Shown in pieces: positions 1 through 6,025 of a stretch of 6,537 nt of DNA. The notes under the pieces are model-generated. The model did no database searches. It was not told the DNA's origin and saw only the letters and a list, made by a program, of their open reading frames with translations. Every line of letters starts with the position of its first letter. Position 1 is the first letter of the stretch. The DNA comes from a virus (Duplodnaviria > Heunggongvirae > Uroviricota > Caudoviricetes), in IMG/VR virus record IMGVR_UViG_2585427756_000018; one strand, 5' to 3'. The position numbers and the translations under genes were made by a program.

Positions 1-953
1 GTCCAGATATGGAACGTGATGGAGCGCGGCGGCGGAATTTCATTATCCGCGGCGCTGAAAAACGTCAGACCGTCACGGGTCCACATCCCCGTGTTTTCAC
101 AGATCCACCGCCCGTTGCTCTGGTCAAGCTCAGACTGATGGATCACGCAGCCATGATGTTCACAGAGGTAGAAAACGCTTTCGGGGCTGTCCTTCTCCCA
201 TTTAAGGCCAAAAGGCGTGGATTCATCGCCAAATTTCAGATACTGCTCCTCCCCACAGTGTGGGCAGGGCACATAAAAACGCATGAAATGCGCCGACTCG
301 TTGGCCGCTTTTTCGATCTGGCAGGTGCCTTTGATTTTAGGCGTCGAGCCGCGAATGGATTTGGGCCATACAGAGCCCTCAATACGTTTATCCCCAAGCA
401 GGGTTGGCGAACCCTCTTTTTCGACATCCGGTTCGAACGAGGAAAGTTCGTCATAGCAGACCACGTCCACGGATTTTTCACGGTAGTTTTTGGCGGCAGC
501 GCCGCCCAGGCACCAGAAGCCCACACCCGATGAAAAGCGTTTCAGCGTGAGAGTATTGTCACGATGTTTACGCCCCAGCCATGGAGAAAGGTCTTTCAGA
601 CATGGCACATCCCGAATCGTCGCCTCCACGTGAGACTTCATAAAATCTTCAGCGGCAGAATCCGTGGGCTGAAAAAGCAGACTGTTTCGGGATTTATGCT
701 CAATAAAATACCCGACCACCCCCAGCAACATCTTTGTATAGCCAACACGGGCAGATTTAATCAGATTAACAGTCCGGATCTGATCATTCCCCATGCTGTT
801 CATGATGGCGATCTGGAACGGCAGCGTTTTCCATTCTCCCTCACCATATGAAGATTCTTTAGGCAGATAATAATTTTGATCAGCCCATTCAACTGGCGTC
901 ACCGGCAATGCCCTTATCAGGGGCTGTAATGCTGTTGTGACAGCACTCATCAT
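1..953 (-). CDS. A: Terminase large subunit, lambda gpA-like, N-terminal ATPase part (partial; continues beyond window start)
   Basis: Minus-strand frame open from ATG at 953-951 to nt 1, so absent from the ORF track. Translation MMSAVTTALQPL...LIKSARVGYTKMLLG (P-loop-like KSARVGYTK at nt 732-758)...MRFYVPCPHCGEEQYLKFGD...ITFHIW parallels lambda gpA nearly residue for residue, from memory. Start lies 1 nt after the Nu1-like stop. Plus-strand ORFs 9..533 and 564..851 are antisense to it. Confidence 0.9.
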   Translation of the reverse strand, partial: MMSAVTTALQPLIRALPVTPVEWADQNYYLPKESSYGEGEWKTLPFQIAIMNSMGNDQIRTVNLIKSARVGYTKMLLGVVGYFIEHKSRNSLLFQPTDSAAEDFMKSHVEATIRDVPCLKDLSPWLGRKHRDNTLTLKRFSSGVGFWCLGGAAAKNYREKSVDVVCYDELSSFEPDVEKEGSPTLLGDKRIEGSVWPKSIRGSTPKIKGTCQIEKAANESAHFMRFYVPCPHCGEEQYLKFGDESTPFGLKWEKDSPESVFYLCEHHGCVIHQSELDQSNGRWICENTGMWTRDGLTFFSAADNEIPPPRSITFHIW

Positions 954-954
954 A

Positions 955-1464
955 TTATTCAGTTGTTGCTCTGATATATTCATCGAGTAAATCCGGTAAT
1001 TTATCCCCCGCCCGCGCACACTGATTTGCCCCCTTCGCAATAAGGGTTTTCAGATGGTCAAGATGGCGCGGTGTTAAATCAGGAAACTGTCGCTGCATGG
1101 ATAAAGGGATGGAATCAAGCGTACTGGATAACGCCATTGCCAGCTTGCTGAGAGCAAAAATACAGAACCCGGTATCAATAAGTTTTCCTTTTGACACCTC
1201 ATTTTTTAACTGCTGTGTAACAGCCTGTTCTGCTGTCAGTTCCCATCTGGCAATAAGCAATTTCTCCTCATAGTCGTCTTCGCTATCACCATCAGGCACA
1301 TCGTTTTTACTTCTTCTCAGATACGATATGTAAAAATCGCGCCAGGCATCCAGATCCAGTTGCCCTCGCTTATTCGATATCGGGGCACCCGGCAATTTCT
1401 GCAATCTGCGAAGCTGGCGATCGGTCAGACTTAAATGCCTGGCAACTTCAGTCTGCGTAGCCAC
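955..1464 (-). CDS. nu1: Terminase small subunit, lambda Nu1-like
   Basis: ORF-track 169 aa. C-terminal half (FCIFALSKLAMALSSTLDSIPLSMQRQFPDLTPRHLDHLK...LLDEYI) aligns with lambda Nu1 from memory; N-terminus (TQTEVARHLSLTDRQLRRLQ) is HTH-like. GTG start at 1464-1462 with GAGG about 6 nt upstream and an in-frame TGA just before it. Sits between cos and the large subunit as in lambda. Confidence 0.85.
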   Translation of the reverse strand: MATQTEVARHLSLTDRQLRRLQKLPGAPISNKRGQLDLDAWRDFYISYLRRSKNDVPDGDSEDDYEEKLLIARWELTAEQAVTQQLKNEVSKGKLIDTGFCIFALSKLAMALSSTLDSIPLSMQRQFPDLTPRHLDHLKTLIAKGANQCARAGDKLPDLLDEYIRATTE

Positions 1465-1506
1465 TCCTCACCTCGCAAAAACTCTCACTTCACAATCACA
1501 ACAAAA

Positions 1507-1610
1507 CCGGTCATGTCCGGCTTACATGTCTATTTTTTGTGCATGTCCGGTTCACAGAAGACCTCTTTTTTTATTTTTCATATAGTTAACTTGAAGAGAA
1601 ACCGGACATG
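1507..1610. promoter_or_regulatory. cosB-like terminase-binding region: three copies of a 9-mer (two direct, one inverted) flanking an AT-rich spacer
   Basis: CATGTCCGG at 1512-1520 and 1542-1550, inverted copy CCGGACATG at 1602-1610, plus a partial CATGTC at 1525-1530. A T-rich spacer (1552-1600) separates the inverted copy from the direct pair, matching the lambda R3-I1-R2-R1 layout between cosN and the Nu1 start. Confidence 0.6.
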
Positions 1611-1647
1611 GTTCCCGGAAAATTTTCATAAATAGCGAAAACCCGCG

Positions 1648-1659
1648 AGGTCGCCGCCC
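1648..1659. promoter_or_regulatory. cosN cohesive-end sequence (12-nt overhang)
   Basis: Plus strand AGGTCGCCGCCC is the reverse complement of GGGCGGCGACCT, the lambda 12-nt cohesive end. The flank CTCGCGGGTTTTCGCTATTTATGAAAATTTTCC (reverse complement of 1615-1647) matches the start of the lambda left arm as I recall it. Confidence 0.85.
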
Positions 1660-1705
1660 CGTAACCTGTTGGATCGACGGAAAGGACCCGAAAACGAGAA
1701 TGATT
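1660..1705. promoter_or_regulatory. cosQ-like segment next to cosN
   Basis: CGTAACCTGTTGGATCGACGGAAAGGACCCGAAAACGAGAATGATTATCAC closely resembles the lambda right-end sequence that holds cosQ, recalled from memory. Exact extent uncertain. Confidence 0.55.
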
Positions 1706-1807
1706 ATCACTTACAGCAAGAATCGAATCTGATCTATTATGGTGCTTGCTATTATGTGCCGGCACAAGTGCGTCGTTTACCGTCATTTCACACAGAGGCA
1801 TCATCAA

Positions 1808-2059
1808 ATGAAAATCAGAAATATTCTCGCTATCTCCCTTGCAACATCATCCTTCAGTTGCCTGGCATTTAAATCCTCGCCCAATGTGCTACCAGGACCA
1901 ACGAATCAACTAACTGCGGTAGAAAGTAAAATTATCGGACATTTTTATGCCCCACACAGTGCATTACCCGGAACAACCATCACAGGGACATGTGACGCCT
2001 CCCCCGTCCCGGGATGCACCTGTCCGTTTTGTACTATGCTGCGTAGCCAAAACCGATAA
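1808..2059 (+). CDS. Hypothetical small secreted cysteine-rich protein (83 aa); doubtful
   Basis: Internal ATG of ORF 1739..2059 with GAGG 9 nt upstream. N-terminus MKIRNILAISLATSSFSCLA looks like a Sec signal peptide; C-terminus has CDASPVPGCTCPFC (four Cys). No family recognised; overlaps the alternative 1947..2300 frame. Confidence 0.3.
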   Translation: MKIRNILAISLATSSFSCLAFKSSPNVLPGPTNQLTAVESKIIGHFYAPHSALPGTTITGTCDASPVPGCTCPFCTMLRSQNR

Positions 2060-2120
2060 CATCCGCATTTACCTGGTATTACATGATGAGTTCACGCAGC
2101 GACTGATAGAGGAAGGAAAG

Positions 2121-2300
2121 ATGGTTAGTAAAAGCAAGGCGCATTGCCGCCGCATGCTGCAGGCATTGCAACAGACGAGAGCAGGTATTTTTGACCAGTT
2201 GGAAAACTGCCAGCATACTTTGCCCGAGTATATCGCCATCTCATCGGAAACCAGTGCAACTCTTATTCATCGGGTTCCACCAGAGAAAAAGAAGAAATGA
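2121..2300 (+). CDS. Hypothetical protein, 59 aa
   Basis: ATG at 2121 preceded by a strong SD (GAGGAAGGAAAG). MVSKSKAHCRRMLQALQQTRAGIFDQLENCQ...PPEKKKK. The ORF track extends this frame to 1947 (117 aa) but that start has no SD. Followed by a hairpin terminator. No family recognised. Confidence 0.4.
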   Translation: MVSKSKAHCRRMLQALQQTRAGIFDQLENCQHTLPEYIAISSETSATLIHRVPPEKKKK

Positions 2301-2305
2301 ACAGT

Positions 2306-2337
2306 GAGGCGTTGTGTGGCATACAACGCCTTCTTCC
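2306..2337. terminator. Candidate bidirectional intrinsic terminator between convergent genes
   Basis: Perfect 8-bp stem GGCGTTGT (2308-2315) / ACAACGCC (2323-2330) with 7-nt loop, followed by TTCTTCC on the plus strand and a T-rich run on the minus strand. Lies between the 3' ends of the plus gene ending at 2300 and the minus lipoprotein gene ending at 2423. Confidence 0.45.
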
Positions 2338-2422
2338 ATCATTCCTCGTCAGCCATGACAAAAATATAACCGCTGGCTCTTTCATTTTTCTCCTGCGTCC
2401 AGCCCCTCTCTACCTGGAAGCA

Positions 2423-2749
2423 TCAGGGACGTGACGGCGTAAAGATAAATTGTCTCTTCACTCCCTGACAGGGGCGATTCTTTTCAAATCGCCATTTCGC
2501 CATGGCCTTCACCACTTCATCACGAAACAAATTATGAGGCTCTGAGCGGAGAAAAACGATCCGTGTCACAGTCCCATCAGCACCAATATCGAACTTAACC
2601 TCAACCAGCCCCTTGATATAATTTGCTGCAGCATATTCCGGATATCGTGGATACACCGTCACTAATTGCCGGGGCTCATCAGCTTTTTGCTGTGAGCATC
2701 CCACTGCCAGGACAGATAACAGAAAAAGTAGTAAAAGGCGTCTTTTCAT
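2423..2749 (-). CDS. Lipoprotein consisting of a TonB C-terminal-like domain (108 aa)
   Basis: ATG at 2749 with AGGA 6 nt upstream. MKRRLLLLFLLSVLAVGC has a signal peptide and lipobox-like AVGC. The rest (YPRYPEYAAANYIKGLVEVKFDIGADGTVTRIVFLRSEPHNLFRDEVVKAMAKWRFE) matches the TonB C-terminal domain pattern (compare E. coli TonB ...[44 protein letters not shown], from memory). The ORF track 126-aa version starts further upstream without an SD. Confidence 0.8.
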   Translation of the reverse strand: MKRRLLLLFLLSVLAVGCSQQKADEPRQLVTVYPRYPEYAAANYIKGLVEVKFDIGADGTVTRIVFLRSEPHNLFRDEVVKAMAKWRFEKNRPCQGVKRQFIFTPSRP

Positions 2750-3059
2750 TTTTATTCCTACGGGTCTTATTCTGACAATATATCCTGTGTTCCAGACTGC
2801 CACATCACCACATCCTGTGCCATTATCTGACTCACATTACATACATCGCATCGGGATACAGTAGTAGCACTTTCTGTAATACAGCTTCCTGTTTCTTCCA
2901 CCATCGCACCGGGATAAACCCGCGAATCATTAACGCGGTAAAAACCCGGTGTGCATCGTTTTTAATTATCCCCGCACACTCGCGCAGAGGAGTCTCCCTG
3001 TCGGGCTGCGGTCTCTGTTAATGAGGGAATATAGCGACGATACGGCGCATCAACAAAAC

Positions 3060-3518
3060 TTATTTCAGGCACTGAGTGCGGATATAGTCCTGTGCCCCTT
3101 CCAGTTGCTTGTGCATCGTCATCAGCCGCTCTCTGAGGGTGAAATAATCCCGTGTAACGGTGTCTGCCAGTTGGGGGCCGGTTGCATTATCCACGCCGGA
3201 GGTGGTGGGGGCTTCACGCACGGAGCCTGGACAGGTGGCGTTGATCCGCAGGCGCTTACGACCAGCGGCAACGTCAGCGCGAAGAGTTTCATTTTCAGCT
3301 CTCGCATCGGCTAATTCCCTCGAGTATTTTGCATCGAGCGCAGCAACATCGCGCTGGCGCACCTGCATATCAGTAATGGTTGCGTTCGCCAGCTTCAGTT
3401 CACTGGCTTTGTTATCGCGCTGCGCTTTGTAGGTAATCGCGTTATCACGGTAATGGTCTGTTGCCATCCACAGCGCACCACAGGCCACCAGCAGAATAAC
3501 GATAAACGCGGAAAGCAT
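3060..3518 (-). CDS. Rz: Rz inner-membrane spanin (i-spanin)
   Basis: [35 protein letters not shown]...[28 protein letters not shown] parallels lambda Rz from memory. N-terminal TM segment, then coiled-coil-like region. ATG at 3518 preferred over the ORF-track GTG at 3533. Confidence 0.9.
3122..3307 (-). CDS. Rz1: Rz1 outer-membrane lipoprotein spanin (o-spanin), embedded in Rz in the +1 frame
   Basis: [61 protein letters not shown]: lipobox VSAC, proline-rich mature part, very close to lambda Rz1 (…[14 protein letters not shown]…GIISPSERG). Entirely inside Rz, as is characteristic. Confidence 0.9.
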
Positions 3519-3529
3519 TCGGTTTATGT

Positions 3530-3661
3530 TCACCCCAGCAACCCCGACGAAGACAACATCATCCAGGCCATGGAAAGAAAAAGAGCAACCAGCATTAGTG
3601 AAAATGAAATGCCGACAATTACACAGAGGATCTTCGCCAGCGTTATGAGTTTGTCTGACAT
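3530..3661 (-). CDS. Hypothetical small membrane protein, 43 aa, single predicted TM helix
   Basis: ATG at 3661-3659 with strong SD GGGAGGA about 6 nt upstream. [43 protein letters not shown]. Its TGA stop (3532-3530) overlaps the GTG/ATG region of Rz. The ORF-track 73-aa form has no SD at its start. Confidence 0.5.
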
Positions 3662-3675
3662 GCTTAATCCTCCCT

Positions 3676-3858
3676 TCACGATTTCAACGCAATGACCAGT
3701 TTTGCCAGCCCATACAGCATCGGGGACACAGCAACACCGACCGCCACCCACTTAATGGCAAAAGCCAGTGCTCTGCTGATGTCATCAGTTACAGGCGCTT
3801 TCAGTTCAAGGCCATTTTTCATAGTCAACCTCAACAGAATTCGTTTACACTTCGCCAT
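3676..3858 (-). CDS. Hypothetical small protein, 60 aa (alternative start 3822 gives 48 aa), hydrophobic C-terminal segment
   Basis: [66 protein letters not shown] lies 3 nt before ATG 3858; GAGG lies 6 nt before ATG 3822. Its TGA stop sits immediately 5' of the SD of the next small gene (AAATCGTGAAGGGAGGATTAAGCATG), implying an operon. Confidence 0.45.
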
Positions 3859-4014
3859 GTTCTCCCTTGCCTTACTCAAGGTCAGAAACACAAAACCTCG
3901 CTTGGTGCCAACAAACGGGGTTTTTACTTTTATTCACTTACGTTTCGCCAGTTCGCAGGATTTCGTGTTATCCGCCCGCGTGGCCATTCCTCATTTTTCA
4001 GCAAAATATTCTGC

Positions 4015-4548
4015 TTATCTGTCGATACCCCAGCACGCCAGCGCGCTCTCCTGGTCACGACGGGATACCTGACCGTAACAGTTGTTTGAACGAATACGGC
4101 AGTCTCTGCCACCGTCCTTAATCCACCAGCGAATCGCTTCGCAGGCACCTTTTCGATCACCAGCATTAATTCGTCTGTAAAACGTCGACGGGAAACACTT
4201 ACCGGGACCAATGTTGTACGGACAGAATGACGCGATCCCCGCTTTCTGGGGTTCGGTCAGCGGCACTCTGATGTTTTTCTCCACCCACGCCAGCGCTTTA
4301 TCACGCTCAATGGCGTTAACCTGGTCGCATTTTTCCTTCGACAACTTCATGCCCGGAACGACAGGTTTGCCATCCACCATGATGGCACCACGGCAGATGG
4401 TCCAGATACCTGCACCATCACGGTATGCTGTGGTGTGGTTGCCTTCCTTTTCATCCAGAAACTGGTCGAGAATGTCAGGCGCAGGCGCACCAGCGGCAAT
4501 CAGCGCCAGAACGGCAGCCGACAGGCCGTATTTGATTTTGGTGTTCAT
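4015..4548 (-). CDS. R: SAR endolysin (T4-lysozyme-like, phage 21 R21 type)
   Basis: 177 aa. N-terminal Gly/Ala-rich weakly hydrophobic signal-anchor-release segment (KYGLSAAVLALIAAGA). E-x8-D-x5-T catalytic spacing in DEKEGNHTTAYRDGAGIWTICRG, as in T4 lysozyme and R21. RINAGDRKGACEAIRWW resembles R21 INQGDIKGACDQLRRW, from memory. Confidence 0.9.
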   Translation of the reverse strand: MNTKIKYGLSAAVLALIAAGAPAPDILDQFLDEKEGNHTTAYRDGAGIWTICRGAIMVDGKPVVPGMKLSKEKCDQVNAIERDKALAWVEKNIRVPLTEPQKAGIASFCPYNIGPGKCFPSTFYRRINAGDRKGACEAIRWWIKDGGRDCRIRSNNCYGQVSRRDQESALACWGIDR

Positions 4549-4584
4549 GGATATATTAAATATTCAGCCGCTGTCCCTGGCCCA

Positions 4585-5475
4585 CTAAATACGCACTTTA
4601 AGATAAGTCAGCCCCGGATGAAGCCAGTAAGCCGGCACTTTTTTAAAGGGTGGAGTATTAAAATCACGAAGAAGAGCCTCCCGCACAATTGCATCCTTAT
4701 CAGCACCACTGGCCAGCGCTTCAATCTCAGCGGCTACCTGAAGATATCCCATGCAACGGCCAACGCGCTTCATCAGCCCCTGCTTTTTATTGTTCTTCAG
4801 GTAATCAATGGCAAATTCAATGAGCTCCTCACTGTGCTGGTGCGATGGAGGTGTTACTTTCCCATTTTCTGAGATGGTTATTTTCCCAGCATCACCGGAT
4901 ACAACAAAGGATGGCCGGTTACACTCCCATTCCAGCTCACTGAAATTATCATTATGAATACTGAAACACTCTGCGAGATTTCTGCTCATCACTTTCCGAC
5001 AATAATCGTCAAACGCAGCAAACTGCTTTTCATCGCCAGAAGGCACCAATATCGACCATTTCTTATTCAGCTCAACGACGTAGCTCTCCAGTTTTTCAAT
5101 ACGTGATTCAACATCATCTTTTTCTGACCGCAGTGTTGACGGCGGCATCTTCAGAGAACAAGTAATTCTTCCCGGTAGCTTTCCTTTGTAGGTTATCAAC
5201 ACATCCTGCGCCTCTAAAATTACGGGGCGCTTTTCCGGCAACGGTTCGTTCCATTCACATAACCCGGCAGCAACATCCATGAAAAACTGCTTCGCCTGCT
5301 TTTTCGCCTCAGCTTCGTAAAACTCCAGCGTGGCACCTTCAGTACGGTCAAGACTAATCGCCACATCTGGCAACAACAGCGACGCTTGCCCGTCACCTTC
5401 CGGCTTCACAGTAACAGTAACCTTATCCCCGTAATTATTTATCCCCTTAACAACCAGTTCATATTTTTTATTCAT
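4585..5475 (-). CDS. Hypothetical 296-aa protein inserted between pinholin and endolysin; family not recognised
   Basis: Uninterrupted ORF (track 4585..5478 uses GTG; ATG at 5475 preferred). SD GGGGAGAG lies inside the last codons of the pinholin gene, 7 nt before the ATG. Predicted soluble (no long hydrophobic stretch), with a probable coiled-coil stretch (DDVESRIEKLESYVVELNKKW). Hand-counted GC is about 40-42% on two 60-nt samples versus about 57-58% in terminase and endolysin samples. Confidence 0.8.
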   Translation of the reverse strand: MNKKYELVVKGINNYGDKVTVTVKPEGDGQASLLLPDVAISLDRTEGATLEFYEAEAKKQAKQFFMDVAAGLCEWNEPLPEKRPVILEAQDVLITYKGKLPGRITCSLKMPPSTLRSEKDDVESRIEKLESYVVELNKKWSILVPSGDEKQFAAFDDYCRKVMSRNLAECFSIHNDNFSELEWECNRPSFVVSGDAGKITISENGKVTPPSHQHSEELIEFAIDYLKNNKKQGLMKRVGRCMGYLQVAAEIEALASGADKDAIVREALLRDFNTPPFKKVPAYWLHPGLTYLKVRI

Positions 5476-5479
5476 CACT

Positions 5480-5695
5480 TTACTCTCCCCGCGCCGCCTT
5501 ACGCCGGTCCTCTTTGATTTTGAAATACAGGTTAGTCAGGTACGTCAGCAGCCCAAACAGCAGACTCCCCAGCACGCCTATTGCCGCCCACTGAGACGGG
5601 GAAACCCTGTCCAGCAACTGCAGGAACCAGTAGCCCGTTCCCACCGCTGACGTGGTGTATGACACACCTGTTGTGATTTTTTCCATCTGGTACAT
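5480..5695 (-). CDS. S: Class II holin (pinholin), phage 21 S21 family, dual-start 71/68 aa
   Basis: [71 protein letters not shown] is near-identical in pattern to S21 (…[26 protein letters not shown]…[20 protein letters not shown], from memory). Two TM segments, the first SAR-like. Two in-frame ATGs at 5695 and 5686; GGGAGA lies 6 nt upstream of the first. The ORF-track 89-aa form starts upstream without an SD. Confidence 0.9.
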
Positions 5696-5736
5696 ACCCC
5701 GTCTCCCGTTATCCGGAAGCTCACAACAATATAAAG

Positions 5737-5758
5737 ACCACCGGCACACACCGATGGT
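5737..5758 (-). terminator. Candidate hairpin with U-rich tail between the truncated upstream gene and the pinholin
   Basis: Minus-strand RNA ACCAUCGG-UGUGUG-CCGGUGGU forms an 8-bp stem with one G-U pair, followed by CUUUAUAUUGUUGUG. It lies in the 76-nt gap between the upstream stop (5772) and the pinholin start. Function is speculative (attenuator, terminator or RNA stabiliser). Confidence 0.3.
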
Positions 5759-5771
5759 CCCTTGCGCAGGC

Positions 5772-5971
5772 TTACATCATCATGTCGCTGTCAGGTGTGG
5801 GTTCACCGCCATCTGAAGCACTCCCGTCACCCGCGATACCTTCCGGCTCCGGAACCGCTGGTACGCCCAGCAGCTCATCCAGAATGGCATCCACTTCTGC
5901 ATCAAGACGCGACTCAAGGTTCTGGCGGAGTTTCTGTTTCAGTGCGCTCAGGACTTCTTCAGAGCGCAGGA
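5772..5971 (-). pseudogene. 3' fragment (66 codons) of an unidentified gene whose 5' part is cut off by the IS insertion
   Basis: Minus-strand frame open from the IS boundary to TAA at 5774-5772: …[65 protein letters not shown]. No start codon; the frame runs straight into the IS left end. The two plus-strand ORFs here (5762..5974, 5782..6000) are antisense to it. Confidence 0.5.
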
Positions 5972-6025
5972 TGAACCGCCCCGGGAATCCTGGAGACTAA
6001 ACTTCCTGAGAAAGAGGTAAACAGG

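Follow-up and report, generated by a model that had tools for sequence, protein, structure and literature searches.

A lambdoid prophage lipoprotein made of a lone TonB C-terminal domain, a possible decoy for TonB-dependent import

The stretch of DNA analysed here, which we call the window, comprises 6,537 nucleotides of the virus record IMGVR_UViG_2585427756_000018, and is the late region of a lambdoid (phage-21-type) prophage of Escherichia coli, read on the minus strand. Just downstream of its lysis genes lies a gene, here termed the TonB_C gene, encoding a lipoprotein of 108 amino acids that comprises a lipoprotein signal peptide and a single TonB C-terminal domain. It has the intact TonB fold, is under purifying selection, and has relatives on prophages, plasmids and chromosomal islands, some of which lie beside immunity or exclusion genes. 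The reading that we tentatively place first, and would put a little below even, is that the protein is an energy-uncoupled decoy for the TonB box that dampens the TonB-dependent import of bacteriocins and phages.

The gene begins with the ATG at 2749 and ends with the stop codon at 2423-2425 of the minus strand in the list of open reading frames (ORFs) for the window. The N-terminus has the layout MKRR-LLLLFLLSV-LAVG-C18-SQQ, in which a basic start (K/R) and a hydrophobic core lead into the lipobox LAVG/C18, with the codon for Cys18 at 2696-2698. In E. coli a serine at position +2 predicts an outer-membrane lipoprotein, and the sequence rule for this class, an invariant cysteine after a basic and hydrophobic signal with a +2 residue other than aspartate, describes the window protein, where +2 is serine and not aspartate. 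By this established rule the lipoprotein is predicted to be sorted to the outer membrane. Seven residues separate Cys18 from the domain, and there is neither a transmembrane anchor nor a proline-rich spacer in the protein; in most of its relatives the tether between the lipid anchor and the domain is 7-8 residues. The earlier note on this DNA, made from the letters alone, had described a lipoprotein signal followed by a lone TonB C-terminal domain, with no proline-rich spacer and no ExbBD-interacting helix. The translation and the domain matches agree with that description, residues 1-18 being a cleavable lipoprotein signal. Its hand-counted GC content of about 48% was near the computed value of 46.8%.

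A search against Pfam TonB_C, which the note had proposed as a check alongside structure prediction, gives a match to PF03544 at 49.2 bits against a cut-off of 24.6, covering residues 33-99, and TIGR01352 (tonB_Cterm) matches at 47.4 bits against a cut-off of 27.1. With phmmer against the sequences of the Protein Data Bank, residues 23-103 align without a gap on E. coli TonB 150-230 (E = 1.4e-14), and identity to E. coli TonB 150-235 is 38% over 86 positions, again gapless. The domain is complete and of the type found in enterobacterial TonB. An AlphaFold2 model made with 38 diverse homologues in the alignment has a mean confidence score (pLDDT) of 86; an earlier run with 11 close homologues, at pLDDT 55, was discarded. 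The top Foldseek matches of the model are TonB C-terminal domains, with E between 1e-7 and 1e-6 and template modelling (TM) scores of 0.8-0.93. They include 1u07, the BtuB-bound domain 2gsk_B (root-mean-square deviation 1.0 Å over 79 columns, TM 0.92) and the FhuA-bound domain 2grx_C (TM 0.93). The viral fold library BFVD gave no match at E <= 0.001. The aromatic core of TonB, F180, F202, W213, Y215 and F230, is represented in the window protein by F53, F75, W86, F88 and F103, and both the YP motif and the β3 strand of TonB are present. In TonB it is the β3 strand of the C-terminal domain that pairs with the TonB box (PMC11658791).

Thus the protein has the same fold as the C-terminal domain of E. 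coli TonB (residues ~150-239; 1U07, 2GSK with BtuB and 2GRX with FhuA), and we classify it from its sequence as a TonB-domain protein and not a TonB, because models of full-length TonB match it over their C-terminal third alone and it has no anchor and no spacer. Full-length TonB equivalogs (NCBIfam PRK10819) align through their positions ~150-240 only, the best at 69.2 bits, far under the cut-off of 315. What defines TonB as an energy transducer, the inner-membrane anchor and the proline-rich spacer, is missing, and without an N-terminal anchor and spacer the protein is not energisable by ExbB-ExbD. It differs from TonB also in its predicted lipid anchoring to the opposite membrane and in the absence of the last four residues.

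The gene is not new to the databases. Its product is 100% identical to CPT_21_73 of phage 21, named "TonB C-terminal domain protein", and to RefSeq WP_000830178.1, which the NCBI annotation pipeline (PGAP) calls "TonB family protein". The same protein is found in phages ev017 and Perceval and in several ECOR-derived phages, and a 72%-identical allele is carried by Stx1a phages and by JLK-2012. In some deposited records the gene is named "partial tonB-like" or "TonB fragment". The TonB-C identity of the product, as given in the earlier note, had already been annotated in public records, and the bare observation is known. A 418-bp contig (NZ_SJEX01000172.1) in an assembly of Modestobacter excelsi encodes the first 67 residues at 100% identity, and this is almost certainly assembly contamination.

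By blastn the gene is present in 1617 of 5426 complete E. coli genomes (30%), in one to four copies each; 1225 of the carriers have it at >=95% identity and 392 at ~73%. It is very common in human and animal isolates of E. coli. Between the two E. coli allele classes the ratio of nonsynonymous to synonymous substitution (dN/dS) is 0.12 at dS ~1.5, and 0.11 for the TonB_C domain alone. This indicates, on the pattern of substitution, that purifying selection acts on the gene and that the protein is functional. The weakest of the explanations that we have considered, that the gene is an inert fragment of tonB picked up by a phage and carried without function, finds an echo in the names given in some records; it is very improbable and is effectively ruled out by these data, the gene being intact in more than 1600 genomes, having gained a lipoprotein signal peptide and a ribosome-binding site, and keeping its architecture at 35-50% identity across genera.

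An exhaustive HMMER search returned 2795 matches. Among the best of these are many proteins of 107-133 amino acids that are 35-46% identical from end to end and mostly have a lipobox; the form L-x-[GA]-C with S, A, T or V at +2 occurs in every prophage relative that was examined. No match came from viral scans with P0041 and P0071. In the prophages examined the relatives, at 30-50% identity to the window protein, share the direction of the late genes, and all but one (locus L024, where no lysis genes lie upstream) are placed between the spanin genes and the terminase. In at least nine prophage contexts the gene is found just downstream of the spanin genes, with lysis modules that differ from one to the next: Rz/Rz1 in E. 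coli and Rahnella, a GH19 endolysin with DUF2514 in a Salmonella-type element, GH24 lysozyme with LysC, and GH108-like and GH19 types in Klebsiella phages. Depending on the phage, bor, KilA-N, a bacteriocin module or Ivy can also be found in the slot between lysis genes and terminase, which behaves as a hot-spot for accessory genes. In one prophage a homologue of Ivy, the inhibitor of vertebrate lysozyme (68.5 bits; CKPHNC), directly follows the TonB_C gene (L012 6449-6871), adding a further protective protein of the periplasm to this slot.

Other relatives are neighbours of genes for bacteriocins, immunity or exclusion. On a Serratia chromosome and on conjugative plasmids, the gene for a secreted TonB_C protein and, 67 nt behind it in the same orientation, an immunity gene of the colicin-E1 type converge on the gene of a pore-forming colicin (L058 4001-6510; L071; L075 5001-7498). 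This three-gene module is mobile, occurring on the chromosome and on plasmids, and in some Serratia strains a SIR2 gene stands in place of the colicin. The N-terminus of the colicin reads ...GDSMTVTG... before a glycine-rich stretch, and contains the TonB-box-like sequence DSMTV, which we take to resemble the DTMVV TonB box of colicins B and D. A Pantoea prophage has the order holin, lysozyme, Rz, DNase bacteriocin, its immunity gene, TonB_C and terminase, and in another prophage (L068) an orphan DNase-immunity gene precedes TonB_C. An integrase-linked island carries TonB_C with or without a pore-forming colicin. Klebsiella IncF plasmids carry, in this order, TonB_C, an Exc2-family entry-exclusion lipoprotein, the immunity gene of a cloacin and an rRNase toxin that survives as a truncated remnant; in all, 43 Klebsiella plasmid records match the window protein.

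Ahead of the orphan DNase-immunity gene and TonB_C in L068 lies an ORF of 127 amino acids (2974-3357) with weak, below-cut-off similarity to models of the YebF family (NCBIfam PRK13680, E = 5e-5; YebF_not_Cmi, E = 5e-4). A YebF-like fold is known from the colicin M immunity protein, and the region may represent a small island directed against bacteriocins.

Group-B and group-A colicins, and many phages as well, have to make contact with one of two hubs in the periplasm, TonB and TolA, and the C-terminal domain of TolA has been copied in the same manner. Like the window protein, these copies combine a lipobox with the isolated C-terminal domain of an energy transducer and occur on the same types of element; the domain belongs to a different family, PF06519, matched at 83-86 bits in proteins of 123-144 amino acids. 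They occur in 745 plasmid records, in the lambdoid phage mEp460_ev081 between Q and the lysis genes (L079 3489-3917), and, in the phage type, in 888 of 5426 E. coli genomes (16%). PGAP names them "cell envelope integrity protein TolA", and no functional study of them was found in the literature available. Both domains meet on p69-3 of K. pneumoniae (NZ_CP025459), a 10-kb ColRNAI bacteriocin plasmid, where a lipoprotein TolA C-terminal domain and a secreted TonB_C form one operon (L078 2115-2848) with genes overlapping by 4 nt, adjoining genes for a cloacin-like toxin, immunity and lysis. The TonB_C of p69-3 is 44% identical to genuine TonB and 23-33% identical to the prophage group; being nearer to real TonB, it suggests that the domain has probably been captured more than once. 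The one mention of such proteins that we found is descriptive, a 2023 paper in which "TolA" and "TolB family" proteins are listed for a bacteriocin plasmid of this kind (PMC10269471). The occurrence of stand-alone exported TonB and TolA domains on the same types of mobile element, and once in a single operon, is hard to explain except as interference with the two pathways.

What is new, then, is that relatives of the gene follow the spanin genes across different lysis cassettes, that others lie beside immunity or exclusion genes or in bacteriocin plasmids, and that phages and plasmids also carry lipoprotein TolA C-terminal domains, with both in one operon in a klebicin plasmid. In the literature available we found no report that points out the repeated occurrence of exported TonB and TolA C-terminal domains, on phages and bacteriocin plasmids, next to genes for immunity and exclusion.

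For the decoy that we propose, the Lol pathway would put the lipoprotein in the inner leaflet of the outer membrane, with its TonB domain held a few nanometres beneath the outer-membrane receptors and with no link to ExbB-ExbD or to the proton-motive force. There it would bind TonB boxes through the same β-strand addition as TonB, the targets being the boxes of TonB-dependent transporters, or those of group-B colicins threading through the receptor. Because such a decoy cannot pull, it would compete with the scarce TonB of the host and lower TonB-dependent import, and the selected benefit would be that prophage and host tolerate TonB-dependent bacteriocins, microcins and phages. The intact TonB_C fold, the conserved lipobox and 7-8-residue tether, the immunity and exclusion neighbours and the TolA parallel are all consistent with this.

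There is laboratory precedent for such a mechanism, and we would place the window protein among the envelope exclusion proteins of mobile elements. Engineered periplasmic TonB fragments, in which the isolated domain is exported by a foreign signal peptide, inhibit TonB-dependent transport (Howard, Herrmann, Stratilo & Braun 2001, J Bacteriol 183:5885, as cited in PMC9841981). The same article cites that overproduction of the periplasmic part of TonB inhibits TonB-dependent import, and that TonB-box peptides inhibit phi80 infection and colicin killing. Those fragments were soluble and overproduced constructs, whereas the window gene is natural, lies on a mobile element and has a product predicted to be lipid-anchored; natural soluble versions with signal peptides for signal peptidase I occur among its relatives. 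There are also phage proteins of comparable action. Llp of T5 and Cor of phi80, N15 and HK022 are described as small phage outer-membrane lipoproteins that block FhuA from the periplasmic side (10.64898/2026.03.26.714494; PMC11436027). Like the proposed decoy, they are small phage lipoproteins acting on a TonB-dependent transporter to stop phage entry. Unlike the window protein, for which the only Pfam match is TonB_C, they have no relation to it in sequence or fold, are specific to a single receptor and are encoded beside tail genes. The window protein would act on the shared TonB box, and its gene lies beside lysis genes.

A number of observations weigh against the decoy. The receptor-contact residues of TonB are replaced in the window protein, Q160 by Tyr, R158 by Thr and R166 by Tyr; the position of Q160 varies across the family, and all of the prophage group have Tyr at that of R166. 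Since the TonB domain, in TonB itself, has its N-terminal end directed toward the inner membrane, a tether to the outer membrane might be sterically awkward, and a block of TonB would likely come at the expense of iron uptake by the host. Genes for bacteriocins or immunity lie near the gene in only ~6 of the ~17 distinct contexts examined and not in the E. coli window itself, the bacteriocin-linked relatives are just 30-38% identical to the window protein, inference at the level of the family rests on 30-50% identity, and an Erwinia relative sits among metabolic genes. No functional study of the window protein was found in the literature available. Finally, a consensus promoter scan found no minus-strand promoter near the gene in the window, and if it is expressed from the late transcript only, protection of the lysogen would not be its role. 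The consensus promoter and terminator scans gave no region above shuffled expectation, and the sites near the gene are leads only; in three relatives there are promoter-like sites 15-45 nt upstream of the ATG. The idea of a decoy, which the earlier note had already put forward, thus gains comparative support from the immunity and exclusion neighbours and from the TolA-domain parallel, while the changed receptor-contact residues speak against it. A PADLOC search for catalogued anti-phage defence proteins gave no match.

The same changes in Q160, R158 and R166 raise the possibility of another partner, in which the domain binds host TonB, ExbD, periplasmic binding proteins or peptidoglycan in place of TonB boxes; TonB would then be sequestered at the outer membrane, or the envelope merely tethered. 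The counterparts of F202, W213, Y215 and F230 are all conserved, and according to the Postle laboratory these residues reportedly mediate contacts between TonB C-terminal domains in vivo. However, they are also part of the fold core, and their conservation is therefore not diagnostic. A short tether at the outer membrane would moreover not reach ExbD, and the dimeric crystal forms of TonB are reported to be absent in vivo (PMC3005593). We regard this alternative as unlikely.

Rather unlikely too is a role as an accessory of late lysis. The late promoter would then drive the gene along with the lysis cassette, and the product would act on the outer membrane or peptidoglycan during lysis or shortly before it, perhaps by assisting the spanins, by setting the time at which they act or by weakening links of the outer membrane. 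Its position is what favours this, the gene being co-oriented and just downstream of the spanin genes in those nine or more prophage contexts, and having no clear promoter of its own in the window. In addition, PHROGs places the window protein in phrog_1267, labelled "Rz-like spanin". This label looks positional. Against such a role, relatives occur on plasmids and chromosomal islands that have no lysis genes, the stretch from lysis genes to terminase is a general hot-spot for accessory genes, and each cassette already has a complete spanin pair, in the window Rz and Rz1. We know of no role of TonB in lysis.

The spanin label seems to spread into phage annotations (e.g. NC_004914.3 and PV189404.1). 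An o-spanin is a short lipoprotein, rich in proline, that is encoded within the i-spanin gene or in overlap with it, and a u-spanin has a lipobox and a C-terminal transmembrane domain. The TonB_C gene is a separate gene 310 nt downstream of Rz, and its product folds as a globular TonB domain and lacks a hydrophobic segment at its C-terminus, which rules out a spanin.

A further alternative keeps the same binding and changes what is selected. The protein would then tune the uptake of siderophores, haem or B12, or FecA-type signalling, in the lysogen, with a benefit in virulence or metal homeostasis and not in defence. Phage 21 carries the iron/manganese ATP-binding cassette (ABC) transporter genes sitB, sitC and sitD beside its tail-fibre genes (L083 8968-11001; OL657228 21967-24502), and this TonB-independent metal uptake could compensate for weakened TonB; the abundance of the gene in human and animal isolates would fit as well. 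Yet the immunity and exclusion linkage of the relatives and the TolA parallels point to the blocking of import, not to nutrition, and we consider the nutritional explanation distinctly unlikely.

The position of the gene invites comparison with bor. Lambda Bor/Iss is a small outer-membrane lipoprotein, as the window protein is predicted to be, and its gene likewise lies just downstream of Rz in lambdoid phages; its sequence is unrelated, and bor is on the opposite strand. The window has no bor, and its TonB_C gene runs in the direction of the late genes. Phage 21 has both genes, with bor placed between Rz and the TonB_C gene and read from the other strand. A Bor homologue is ruled out, since there is no homology (the Bor family gave no match for the window protein in Pfam, NCBIfam or PHROGs) and bor of phage 21 is a different, adjacent gene. 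Replacement of bor is ruled out likewise, because phage 21 carries both; the TonB_C gene is a separate unit with a slot of its own and not a substitute for bor. Of what had been said earlier, the lack of relation to Bor is upheld, and the "bor-like position" is correct as to the location downstream of Rz and not as to strand, nor as to any exchange of the two genes. The resemblance of 2944-3059 to the lambda bor-promoter region that the earlier note had suggested proves to be real as sequence homology. The lambda counterpart, 46868-46974, lies 116-222 nt upstream of the bor ATG, and the segment (~108 nt) is found in 432 phage records. It holds nested inverted repeats (CACCGGG...CCCGGTG), and its predicted RNA fold is no better than that of shuffled sequence.

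Table 1. Features of the window, in minus-strand order around the TonB_C gene, with the loci of TolA-domain lipoproteins in other elements
Feature	Position	Strand	Basis and remarks
IS3-family element	5972..6537		starts exactly at end of identity to LC-1302-2020; orfA 6026-6352, ALIL frameshift pseudoknot 6307-6423
P21-type class II holin S	5480..5695	-	Pfam PF04971, 111.8 bits; PGAP coordinates
DUF1327/YdfR-family ORF, 297 aa, intact	4585..5478	-	phrog_1085 full-length, 630 bits
Endolysin (phage lysozyme)	4015..4548	-	Pfam PF00959, 86.5 bits
Rz i-spanin	3060..3533	-	Pfam Phage_lysis, 161 bits
Rz1 o-spanin, embedded in Rz	3122..3307	-	Rz1, 71.6 bits
Segment homologous to lambda bor-upstream sequence, kept though bor is absent	2942..3049	.	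79.8% identical to lambda 46868-46974
45-aa ORF upstream, travels with TonB_C gene (phage 21 CPT_21_72)	2767..2904	-	may not be a real gene
Extended -10-like element TGTCAGAAT, weak candidate promoter	2769..2777	-	manual reading
Shine-Dalgarno AGGA, 6 nt before ATG	2756..2759	-	read from sequence; phage 21 record annotates ribosome-binding site at same spot
TonB_C lipoprotein coding sequence, 108 aa	2423..2749, stop codon included	-	ORF call; Pfam, NCBIfam, phmmer, AlphaFold2, Foldseek
Signal peptide and lipobox, residues 1-18 = MKRRLLLLFLLSVLAVGC	2696..2749	-	read from translation
Linker SQQKADE, residues 19-25	2675..2695	-	TonB alignment begins at residue 23-26
TonB C-terminal domain, residues 26-108 = E. 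coli TonB 153-235	2426..2674	-	Pfam, phmmer, AlphaFold2, Foldseek
Hairpin, 8-bp G+C-rich stem GGCGTTGT/ACAACGCC	2308..2330	.	between convergent TonB_C gene and orf59
orf59, 59 aa, convergent with TonB_C gene	2121..2300	+	phrog_4843, 156 bits; PGAP hypothetical WP_000253883.1
Unannotated ORF near cos	1739..2059	+	no family match; may be spurious
Terminase small subunit, Nu1 type; next late gene downstream, across cos	955..1464	-	Pfam Phage_Nu1, 67.9 bits; PGAP name
TolA-domain lipoprotein loci (other elements)	L079 3489-3917; L077 6348-6782; L078 2477-2848

The order of late genes on the minus strand is holin, DUF1327/YdfR ORF, lysozyme, Rz/Rz1, TonB_C gene, cos region and Nu1-type terminase (Table 1). 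Bases 1-5971 are 100% identical to a prophage of E. coli LC-1302-2020, where the sequence identical to the DUF1327/YdfR ORF is flagged by PGAP as an incomplete pseudogene. The IS3-family insertion sequence (IS) beyond this point, which we take to be IS629/IS1203-like, interrupts a DUF826 gene just upstream of the holin, and in the strain of the window it may cut off the lysis cassette from its late promoter. Its frameshift pseudoknot is the sole match of an Rfam scan of the window.

Downstream of the TonB_C gene, the hairpin between the convergent genes is, from its sequence, possibly a two-way terminator; a terminator scan did not score it as a canonical one, and the predicted RNA fold of the region downstream of the gene is no better than that of shuffled sequence. 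Around orf59 the phage 21 record annotates small ORFs on the opposite strand instead. The unannotated plus-strand ORF near cos, read from an internal methionine, opens with a signal-peptide-like sequence, MKIRNILAISLATSSFSCLA, followed by a cysteine-rich tail, TGTCDASPVPGCTCPFC.

The TonB-box decoy, if extended to the TolA domains, would be one case of a general strategy of entry exclusion, which we call transducer mimicry and regard as quite possible while still rather doubting it. Mobile elements of the Enterobacterales would export or lipid-anchor stand-alone TonB and TolA C-terminal domains, and these copies would soak up the TonB, TolA or TolB boxes of invaders, or occupy the receptors, with broad tolerance as the result. 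In its TonB arm the window gene would be the representative in E. coli prophages, found in phage 21 and in 30% of complete genomes, and the TolA arm would add a further 16% of genomes and hundreds of Klebsiella plasmids.

It would matter to the biology of E. coli if the decoy is real. About one-third of E. coli genomes would then carry a gene that alters sensitivity to TonB-dependent colicins, microcins and phages, and to siderophore-antibiotic conjugates (albomycin-type and cefiderocol-like "Trojan horses"), and iron acquisition could change too. This would bear on host range in phage therapy, on bacteriocin-based probiotics, on competition in the gut and on siderophore-linked drug uptake. 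It would explain two widely mis-named sets of genes, those called "TonB family protein" and "cell envelope integrity protein TolA", and superinfection exclusion would gain a mechanism that strikes the shared step of energy coupling and not a single receptor.

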